Assembly (NCBI RefSeq): GCF_003334315.1
Contig: NZ_QOWR01000011.1
Reading direction: 5' to 3' (one strand)
DNA length: 64,000 nt
Origin: Escherichia coli
GTDB lineage: Bacteria; Pseudomonadota; Gammaproteobacteria; Enterobacterales; Enterobacteriaceae
Part shown: positions 37,360 to 39,790 of the stretch, piece after piece
How the letters are laid out: every line of letters starts with the position of its first letter
Numbering within the stretch: the first letter of the stretch is position 1
Made by a program: the position numbers and the translations under genes
Notes under the pieces: model-generated
Databases searched by the model: none
What the model was told of the DNA's origin: nothing
What the model saw: the letters and a program-made list of their open reading frames with translations, nothing else

Positions 37360-38976
37360 ATGCTCAGTCAAATTCAACGCTTTGGCGGCGCGATGTTCAC
37401 GCCAGTGCTGCTGTTTCCCTTCGCCGGGATTGTGGTGGGTCTTGCCATCTTGCTGCAAAACCCGATGTTTGTCGGGGAATCACTGACCGATCCGAACAGT
37501 TTATTCGCGCAAATCGTACACATTATTGAAGAGGGCGGTTGGACGGTATTCCGTAATATGCCGCTGATTTTTGCTGTCGGTTTACCCATTGGCCTTGCTA
37601 AGCAAGCGCAGGGGCGTGCTTGTCTGGCGGTGATGGTGAGTTTCCTGACCTGGAACTATTTCATCAACGCGATGGGAATGACCTGGGGAAGCTACTTCGG
37701 CGTCGATTTCACTCAGGACGCGGTGGCAGGTAGCGGTCTGACAATGATGGCCGGGATTAAAACCCTCGATACCAGCATTATCGGCGCAATTATCATTTCC
37801 GGCATTGTGACGGCGCTGCATAACCGTCTGTTCGATAAAAAACTGCCGGTTTTTCTCGGCATTTTCCAGGGGACGTCTTATGTGGTGATTATCGCCTTCC
37901 TGGTGATGATCCCCTGTGCCTGGCTGACGTTGCTCGGCTGGCCAAAAGTACAAATGGGGATTGAATCTCTGCAAGCGTTCCTGCGTTCGGCGGGTGCACT
38001 TGGGGTCTGGGTTTACACCTTCCTCGAACGTATTCTGATCCCAACCGGTTTACACCACTTCATCTACGGACAGTTTATCTTTGGTCCGGCAGCTGTTGAA
38101 GGCGGCATTCAGATGTACTGGGCGCAGCATCTGCAAGAGTTCAGTTTGAGCGCCGAGCCGCTGAAATCGTTGTTCCCGGAAGGCGGTTTTGCCCTGCACG
38201 GTAACTCAAAAATCTTTGGTGCCGTGGGCATTTCTTTAGCGATGTACTTCACTGCCGCACCGGAAAATCGGGTAAAAGTGGCGGGCTTGCTGATTCCCGC
38301 AACCTTAACCGCCATGCTGGTGGGAATTACCGAACCGCTGGAATTTACCTTCCTGTTCATTTCACCGTTGCTGTTTGCGGTACACGCCGTGCTGGCGGCC
38401 TCAATGTCGACCGTAATGTATCTCTTTGGTGTGGTGGGCAACATGGGCGGAGGTCTGATTGACCAGGTTTTACCGCAAAACTGGATCCCGATGTTCAGCA
38501 ACCACGCGGATATGATGCTGACCCAAATCGCCATTGGGTTGTGCTTTACCCTGCTGTACTTCGTGGTTTTCCGCACACTGATTCTGCAGTTCAACATGTG
38601 CACGCCGGGACGTGAAGATGCGGAAGTGAAACTCTACTCAAAAGCCGAATACAAAGCCTCGCGAGGCCAAACCACCGCGGCAGAGCCAAAAAAAGAGCTG
38701 GATCAGGCTGCCGGTATCCTGCAAGCCCTGGGCGGGGTCGGCAATATCTCCAGCATTAACAATTGCGCGACGCGTTTACGTATTGCACTGCATGACATGT
38801 CACAAACGCTGGATGACGAAGTCTTTAAAAAGCTGGGAGCGCACGGCGTCTTCCGTAGTGGCGATGCCATTCAGGTGATCATTGGTCTGCATGTATCCCA
38901 ATTGCGTGAACAGCTCGATAGCTTAATTAATTCTCATCAATCAGCAGAAAATGTTGCCATTACGGAGGCAGTATAA
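37360..38976 (+). CDS. glvC: PTS alpha-glucoside-family EIICB component (uninterrupted EIIC-EIIB fusion)
   Basis: ORF track 37099..38976 trimmed to ATG at 37360 preceded by AAGAGG; EIIC membrane domain followed by EIIB domain with phosphorylatable Cys motif NNCATRLR. Confidence 0.8.
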
Positions 38977-39790
38977 TGACCAAATTCTCAGTGGTTGTCG
39001 CAGGCGGTGGAAGCACCTTTACGCCAGGCATCGTGTTGATGCTCCTGGCGAATCAGGACCGTTTCCCGCTTCGTGCACTGAAATTTTATGATAACGATGG
39101 TGCGCGGCAGGAAGTGATTGCCGAAGCCTGTAAAGTCATCCTTAAAGAGAAAGCGCCGGACATTGAGTTTAGTTACACCACCGATCCTGAAGTGGCATTC
39201 AGCGACGTTGATTTTGTCATGGCGCACATCCGCGTCGGCAAGTACCCGATGCGCGAACTGGATGAAAAAATCCCACTGCGCCACGGTGTTGTTGGTCAGG
39301 AAACTTGCGGACCCGGCGGAATAGCGTACGGCATGCGTTCCATTGGCGGCGTCCTGGAACTGGTGGATTATATGGAAAAATATTCACCAAACGCCTGGAT
39401 GCTCAACTACTCCAACCCGGCAGCAATTGTCGCAGAAGCCACGCGTCGTCTGCGCCCGAATGCGAAAATCCTCAACATCTGTGACATGCCAATCGGTATT
39501 GAAAGCCGGATGGCGCAAATTGTTGGGCTGCAAGATCGCAAACAGATGCGCGTGCGCTACTACGGCCTGAACCACTGGTGGTCGGCGATATCCCGCAGTT
39601 TCAGAAAGGGTTAATGAGTCAGCAAGTGGCGGTGGAAAAACTGGTCGTGGACGCCTGGGAACAGCGTTCATATCAGCACCTGTGGCAGGCGATTACGTTG
39701 TCGAAAACGGTACCGAGCGCCTCGGTCGCCAAAGCTATTCTGGATGAGTTGCTGGAGGCCAACAAAGCGTACTGGCCAGAGTTACGTTAA
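38976..39790 (+). pseudogene. glvG: 6-phospho-alpha-glucosidase (GH4 family) disrupted by an internal deletion and frameshift
   Basis: N-terminal GH4 half ([20 protein letters not shown]...YYGLNH) ends in frame after 212 codons at 39614; the GH4 C-terminal tail ([12 protein letters not shown]...WPELR) continues in another frame from about 39578 to 39790; the middle part of the enzyme is absent. Confidence 0.75.

Follow-up and report, generated by a model that had tools for sequence, protein, structure and literature searches.

What is left of an operon when its transporter gene reads through without a break and its hydrolase gene does not, and does such a state describe one strain or the species? 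The glv locus of Escherichia coli raises this question in a window of 64,000 nucleotides (NCBI RefSeq assembly GCF_003334315.1, contig NZ_QOWR01000011.1), which is the whole stretch of DNA analyzed here. A segment of E. coli chromosome within it carries the gene order yidE, yidP, glvC, glvG', yidL, yidK, and positions 35800-41350 agree base for base with strain CP53. The region represents the glv locus of E. coli, which corresponds to aglA-aglB in Klebsiella and to glvA-glvC(malP) in Bacillus subtilis. Its first gene, glvC, is predicted to encode an alpha-glucoside permease of the phosphotransferase system (PTS), and its second, glvG, is the remnant of a gene for a glycoside hydrolase family 4 (GH4) 6-phospho-alpha-glucosidase. 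We consider it almost certain that the permease frame is whole, that the glucosidase was killed by a 508-bp deletion, and that the locus of E. coli K-12 has decayed further. The features that carry this account are as follows, in window coordinates.

37360..38976, plus strand: glvC, an alpha-glucoside-type PTS EIIC-EIIB gene of 538 codons and a stop (translation, TIGR02005, Pfam, RefSeq WP_000952141.1)
38464, plus strand: the K-12 nonsense site, C here (CAG, Q369) and T in K-12 (TAG) (alignment and allele probes)
38764..38766, plus strand: the codon of C469, the EIIB phosphorylation-site cysteine in the motif NNCATRLR (position, and the EIIB domain at residues 453-482)
38976..39614, plus strand: the 5' remnant of glvG, codons 1-200 of a GH4 6-phospho-alpha-glucosidase, then 12 codons out of frame and a stop (open reading frame and alignments)
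39569..39576, plus strand: the deletion junction, sole remaining copy of the 8-bp direct repeat GAACCACT (comparison with strain O157:H7)
39578..39790, plus strand: the 3' remnant of glvG, its last 70 codons in another frame, with an end that overlaps the yidL stop (open reading frame)

A preliminary description, made from the letters of this DNA, had read glvC as a single 538-codon fusion of EIIC and EIIB that includes the cysteine motif of EIIB. Both points hold: a stop or frameshift was sought in the translation and none was found, and C469 lies within NNCATRLR. The product matches the NCBIfam model TIGR02005 ('alpha-glucoside-specific PTS transporter subunit IIBC') over residues 2-523 with 954.7 bits against a cutoff of 607.3, and Pfam places PTS_EIIC (PF02378) at residues 10-346 and PTS_EIIB (PF00367) at 453-482. 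RefSeq sets no pseudogene flag on the gene (WP_000952141.1), and a Shine-Dalgarno sequence, AAGAGGA, stands at 37346-37352, upstream of the ATG at 37360. From these family matches, GlvC is a predicted Glc-family EIICB permease of the alpha-glucoside subfamily (TIGR02005; AglA/GlvC/MalP type), and it appears intact at the level of reading frame and domains. Pfam found no EIIA domain in GlvC, and none of the adjacent genes annotated in RefSeq is described as a PTS component. An extended GlvC of 625 aa, starting from an ATG at 37099 (open reading frame 37099-38976), was rejected: its 87 additional residues match no family, TIGR02005 begins at residue 2 of the 538-aa form, and the RefSeq ATG at 37360 is preceded by a good Shine-Dalgarno sequence. 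The corresponding 87-codon open extension at 37099-37359, which overlaps the intergenic region upstream of glvC, is most likely not translated.

The hydrolase gene has fared worse. The open reading frame at 38976-39614 has a 212-aa product that matches GH4 6-phospho-alpha-glucosidases over residues 1-200, and the alignment of this truncated GlvG with solved GH4 structures ends at about residue 201-206. The 70-codon tail in the other frame encodes exactly the C-terminal 70 residues of the intact O157:H7 protein and also gives a weak match to the GH4 C-terminal model of NCBIfam. When glvG is set against the intact O157:H7 gene of 1323 nt (440 aa), exactly 508 nt are missing, corresponding to residues 201-369, and the frame is shifted since 508 cannot be divided by 3. 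The breakpoint can be placed anywhere within 8 nt, because two copies of GAACCACT border the lost segment in the intact gene (nt 594-601 and nt 1102-1109). The preliminary description had likewise seen an N-terminal GH4 half with its tail in a different frame and a junction near 39576; the open reading frames and the O157:H7 alignment agree with it, and the breakpoint falls inside the repeat at 39569-39576. A full-length GH4 frame of about 440 aa, holding both domains, was looked for and none could be recovered. RefSeq treats 38976-39790 as a frameshifted pseudogene.

Which catalytic residues survive can be read from the alignment with B. subtilis GlvA (1U8X), to which GlvG is offset by 2: the equivalents C169, D170 and H200 are kept, and Y263 lies within the deleted segment. 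As the residue equivalent to the general-base Tyr265 of the B. subtilis enzyme has been deleted, the enzyme is predicted to be dead, and by this reading of its sequence glvG is a pseudogene and not a functional member of GH4. The operon architecture is nonetheless preserved, given that the glvG start overlaps the glvC stop (TAATG, 38974-38978) and that GGAGG precedes the glvG start.

That the longer form is the ancestral one follows from its end-to-end alignment with characterized enzymes. The intact 440-aa protein of O157:H7, annotated as a 6-phospho-alpha-glucosidase, aligns with the Klebsiella pneumoniae structure 6DUX over residues 1-439 (E=7e-274) and with B. subtilis GlvA (1U8X) over its full length (E=9e-224). 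The O157:H7 locus (glvC-glvA; WP_000952127.1 and WP_000160122.1) resembles that of the window in its operon and flanks, and its GlvC is of equal length and one residue apart (Q238P); it differs in having kept the 508 bp and thereby encoding the full 440-aa enzyme. A full-length hydrolase is encoded in each of the five intact-type genomes examined, among them O157:H7, which together form our intact-type comparison group.

The window can also be placed against K-12. There the locus (b3683, b3682 and a glvG pseudogene) occupies the same place between yidP and yidL and shares the 508-bp deletion with an identical junction; it is equal in length (2551 nt) and about 99.6% identical in nucleotide sequence. 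Over window positions 35800-41350, K-12 differs at 36 positions, 4 of them in glvC and 7 in the glvG remnant. A single glvC difference changes the protein, the C-to-T transition at 38464 that turns Q369 (CAG) into TAG, and in RefSeq the K-12 glvC carries a pseudogene flag with the remark 'internal stop'. The stop yields a GlvC of 368 aa and a GlvB of 161 aa that begins at M378; the NCBIfam model NF007255, of 161 positions, matches residues 378-538 of the continuous GlvC. The classical annotation of K-12 with separate glvC and glvB genes is accounted for by this stop.

We then asked how common each allele is in a population set of 5426 complete E. coli genomes. At codon 369, which was scored with 55-nt probes centered on the single-nucleotide polymorphism such that megablast seeds only with a matching central base, 348 genomes carry the TAG of K-12 and 3926 the CAG of the window. 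Among the 40 TAG-allele genomes listed, most are K-12-derived laboratory strains (MG1655, DH1, MC4100, C600, J53, TG1), and a few are isolates from chicken, mouse gut or human sources. By these counts an unbroken glvC is normal for the species, and its split in K-12 is exceptional. The preliminary description had stated that glvC and glvB are separate pieces in K-12, which the TAG at codon 369 and the RefSeq flag confirm, and had suggested that the uninterrupted fusion could be a further strain difference. The latter is correct insofar as the window differs from K-12, but it is K-12 that shows the derived state. The glvG deletion is no strain difference at all, since the K-12 junction is that of the window.

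The deletion allele is also widespread. The glv locus is present in 4282 of the 5426 genomes and absent from about 1140. The 508-bp segment that marks an intact-length glucosidase gene occurs in 1653 genomes (~30% of the complete set), which leaves about 2630, around half of the complete set, with the deletion by difference (4282 minus 1653), and an 80-bp query spanning the junction matches 2640 genomes at no less than 99% identity. A base-by-base comparison of 12 deletion-type sequences showed the identical junction in every one, and this shared junction suggests that the deletion probably arose once and that the allele then spread. A continuous glvC combined with a deleted glvG is the commonest single state of the locus, found in roughly 2300 genomes.

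The ancestral operon encoded an EIICB permease together with an NAD/Mn-dependent GH4 6-phospho-alpha-glucosidase, the product of the gene called glvG here and glvA when intact. The 508 bp were then lost between the 8-bp direct repeats, probably by slipped mispairing or by short-homology illegitimate recombination. Direct repeats at deletion ends are the signature of such events, and two copies of GAACCACT are present in the intact allele and one is left at the junction. If expressed, GlvC would import and phosphorylate alpha-glucosides with EIIA-Glc (Crr) supplied in trans, as its homologs suggest, and the phosphorylated alpha-glucosides could not be split without the hydrolase. With its sugar phosphates left unsplit, the operon alone would be unable to support growth on alpha-glucosides. 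K-12 stands one step further along this path of decay, the nonsense mutation at Q369 having split glvC into 'glvC' and 'glvB'.

Two characterized systems help to frame this account. The glvA-glvR-glvC(malP) operon of B. subtilis has a homologous hydrolase and an EIICB permease of the same type, but its hydrolase gene precedes the permease gene and it has GlvR, of the RpiR type, as its regulator; in the window the permease gene comes first and the neighboring regulator is of the GntR type. The aglA/aglB pair of K. pneumoniae is alike in having an EIICB permease without EIIA followed by an NAD/Mn-dependent GH4 hydrolase, but it is functional and allows growth on sucrose isomers, whereas the hydrolase gene of the window is broken. 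This functional description comes from Pikis 2006 and Thompson 2001 as they are cited in PMC5309279, where Pikis 2006 is also cited for an interaction of Klebsiella AglA with EIIA-Glc.

The same study provides growth data for K-12, whose homologs of aglA and aglB it describes as seemingly cryptic or truncated (PMC5309279). K-12 with an empty vector did not grow on isomaltose, maltulose, isomaltulose or methyl-alpha-glucoside, and grew slightly on turanose (PMC5309279). Growth on these sugars required B. subtilis glvA and glvC, except that glvA alone was enough for methyl-alpha-glucoside, and a crr mutant supplied with both genes failed to grow on isomaltose (PMC5309279). Earlier descriptions of the K-12 locus are those of Reizer 1994 and Thompson et al., as cited there. 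Our central finding is in this sense already known: descriptions of the K-12 glv locus as cryptic or truncated go back to the 1990s, and the pseudogene is annotated in RefSeq. What the population frequencies bear on is how the locus is described. The division into glvC and glvB in the K-12 annotation goes back to a nonsense mutation that 348 genomes carry and does not represent the gene structure of E. coli, and transporter inventories built on K-12 misdescribe the species at glvC. Strains that keep the 508 bp, including O157:H7, may be able to use alpha-glucosides such as sucrose isomers.

No observation conflicts with the structural part of our account, but several points qualify the rest. 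Recurrent slippage at the GAACCACT repeat would look like a single origin of the deletion. Our view of the active site depends on roles from the 2004 GlvA structure that we assume here, namely that C171, D172 and H202 of B. subtilis GlvA are metal and acid-base residues and that Y265 is the general base. A simple and insensitive scan of 36950-39950 found no sigma-70 consensus and is uninformative about expression. The last point concerns glvC itself. Its sequences were compared in the window (identical to CP53) and ten further deletion-type genomes chosen across the range of identity, which makes 11 non-K-12 genomes, or 12 with K-12. The gene is full-length and unflagged by RefSeq in all 11 of the former, and a whole glvC in which change is mostly synonymous could mean that the permease is used without GlvG.

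This last point leads to the alternative that survives best, although we consider it unlikely: that glvC is not a relic, and that selection keeps it for a role independent of GlvG, such as the transport of a substrate for another enzyme, sensing or regulation, or a share in PTS phosphoryl flux. In its favor, glvC has stayed full-length in all 11 non-K-12 genomes while the glvG remnant has acquired an extra stop in 3 of the 12 sampled deletion-type genomes, none of them K-12 (a stop in place of Q37 of the tail, and 'internal stop' remarks). Nonsynonymous and synonymous polymorphisms of glvC stand at 4:19 in the deletion group, and the variants private to that group at 5:7 (the five including the K-12 stop), against a random expectation of ~76% nonsynonymous or stop (p=0.011). 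However, the intact group shows a ratio of 1:41, and the higher ratio of the deletion group (Fisher p=0.049) points to relaxed constraint. The sample comprises only 12 sequences, and many of the synonymous variants may predate the deletion or have come in by recombination. Gene loss speaks against a selected role as well: K-12 has lost glvC by nonsense mutation, many genomes are without the locus, and glvC is among the genes specifically absent from phylogroup B2 (PMC2617782, Table 5). Together these observations suggest that constraint on glvC is relaxed but not clearly absent, a reading drawn from a small sample in which old polymorphism or recombination could mimic constraint. That purifying selection maintains GlvC in the ~2300 genomes without the hydrolase seems to us quite improbable. 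If it were true, GlvC would have a GlvG-independent role, in the transport of a substrate of another enzyme or in PTS signaling, and the nonsense allele would mean that K-12, as a laboratory lineage, has lost a gene that is still of use.

A second alternative concerns the hydrolase. The 212-aa GlvG, which represents the Rossmann NAD-binding half of the enzyme, might keep some activity or have gained a new function, or frameshifting might add the 70-codon tail. The fragment does retain C169, D170, H200 and the GGGS motif for nucleotide binding, and it has kept a start codon that overlaps the glvC stop. Even a perfect frameshift product would still be without 169 core residues, including Y263, however, and the further stops in 3 of the 12 sampled remnants are as expected of a pseudogene, which is also how RefSeq annotates the gene; we judge an active fragment to be very improbable. 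That the short glvG is an assembly or sequencing artifact, or that the 508 bp are an insertion in other strains, can hardly be credited, given that about 2630 independently assembled complete genomes are without the segment, that 2640 match the junction query and 12 of 12 have the same junction, and that the segment codes for residues 201-369 of a protein whose alignment with the Klebsiella and Bacillus enzymes runs from end to end.

Returning to a dead hydrolase beside a whole permease frame, this is not the only way in which the locus has been damaged. In HH97 (NZ_CP116409.1, 3651-5000), ~1 kb of unrelated DNA stands in place of window positions 36720-39814, a span that takes in glvC, glvG and the 5' part of yidP; the yidE-yidP flank that is kept is only about 90% identical to the window. 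In 1332KP (NZ_CM173849.1, 2444-3763), a 439-aa open reading frame consists of GlvA residues 1-283 (99% identical) and an unrelated tail, yidL, yidK and yidJ are missing, and yidH comes directly after the glucosidase frame. RefSeq names this chimeric GlvA 'RNA-guided endonuclease TnpB family protein', which is a misleading product name. At least four independent lesions have therefore affected the locus, namely the 508-bp deletion, the K-12 nonsense mutation, the replacement of the whole locus and the chimeric glvA, and the glv locus presents a tidy case of stepwise operon decay.

Upstream of glvC lie two further features.

36348..37064, minus strand: yidP, a GntR/HutC-family regulator gene divergent from glvC (RefSeq annotation of the identical CP53 sequence)
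37065..37359, no strand assigned: the yidP-glvC intergenic region, with a palindrome and the glvC Shine-Dalgarno sequence (inverted-repeat search and reading of the sequence)

The yidP product has NCBIfam matches to the GntR family, all of them under the equivalog cutoffs, and from its position YidP is probably the regulator of the operon. The intergenic region holds an imperfect 17-nt palindrome at 37181-37214 with no spacer and 82% complementarity (AGATGTCTACTTTTTCG / CGAAAACGTAGATCTCT), which could be an operator for the GntR-type YidP. The motif TAGATCTCT from this palindrome is seen again at 37068-37076. At the other end of the operon, yidL converges on the glvG remnant, and the two share 4 nt (39787-39790) at their 3' termini. 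This overlap leaves no room for a terminator between the two genes; a simple scan of 36950-39950 detected none there and returned terminator-like sites at chance level only.

A review of the SOS response lists glvB with a 'potential SOS box' (PMC6590174). A LexA box at glv was considered and dropped: the core CTG-N10-CAG is absent from glvC, and glvG has one poor match, at 39187, that is not TA-rich. A good, TA-rich match to the same core, CTGTATAAATAAACAG, is found at 47647-47662; it is unrelated to glv and, going by K-12 gene order, presumably lies near tisAB/istR beside emrD. The core occurs 23 times in the whole window compared to 12.9 expected (sd 3.4), a count reached in 0 of 100 shuffles. 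This excess is probably an effect of the codon usage of CTG and CAG and not regulatory.

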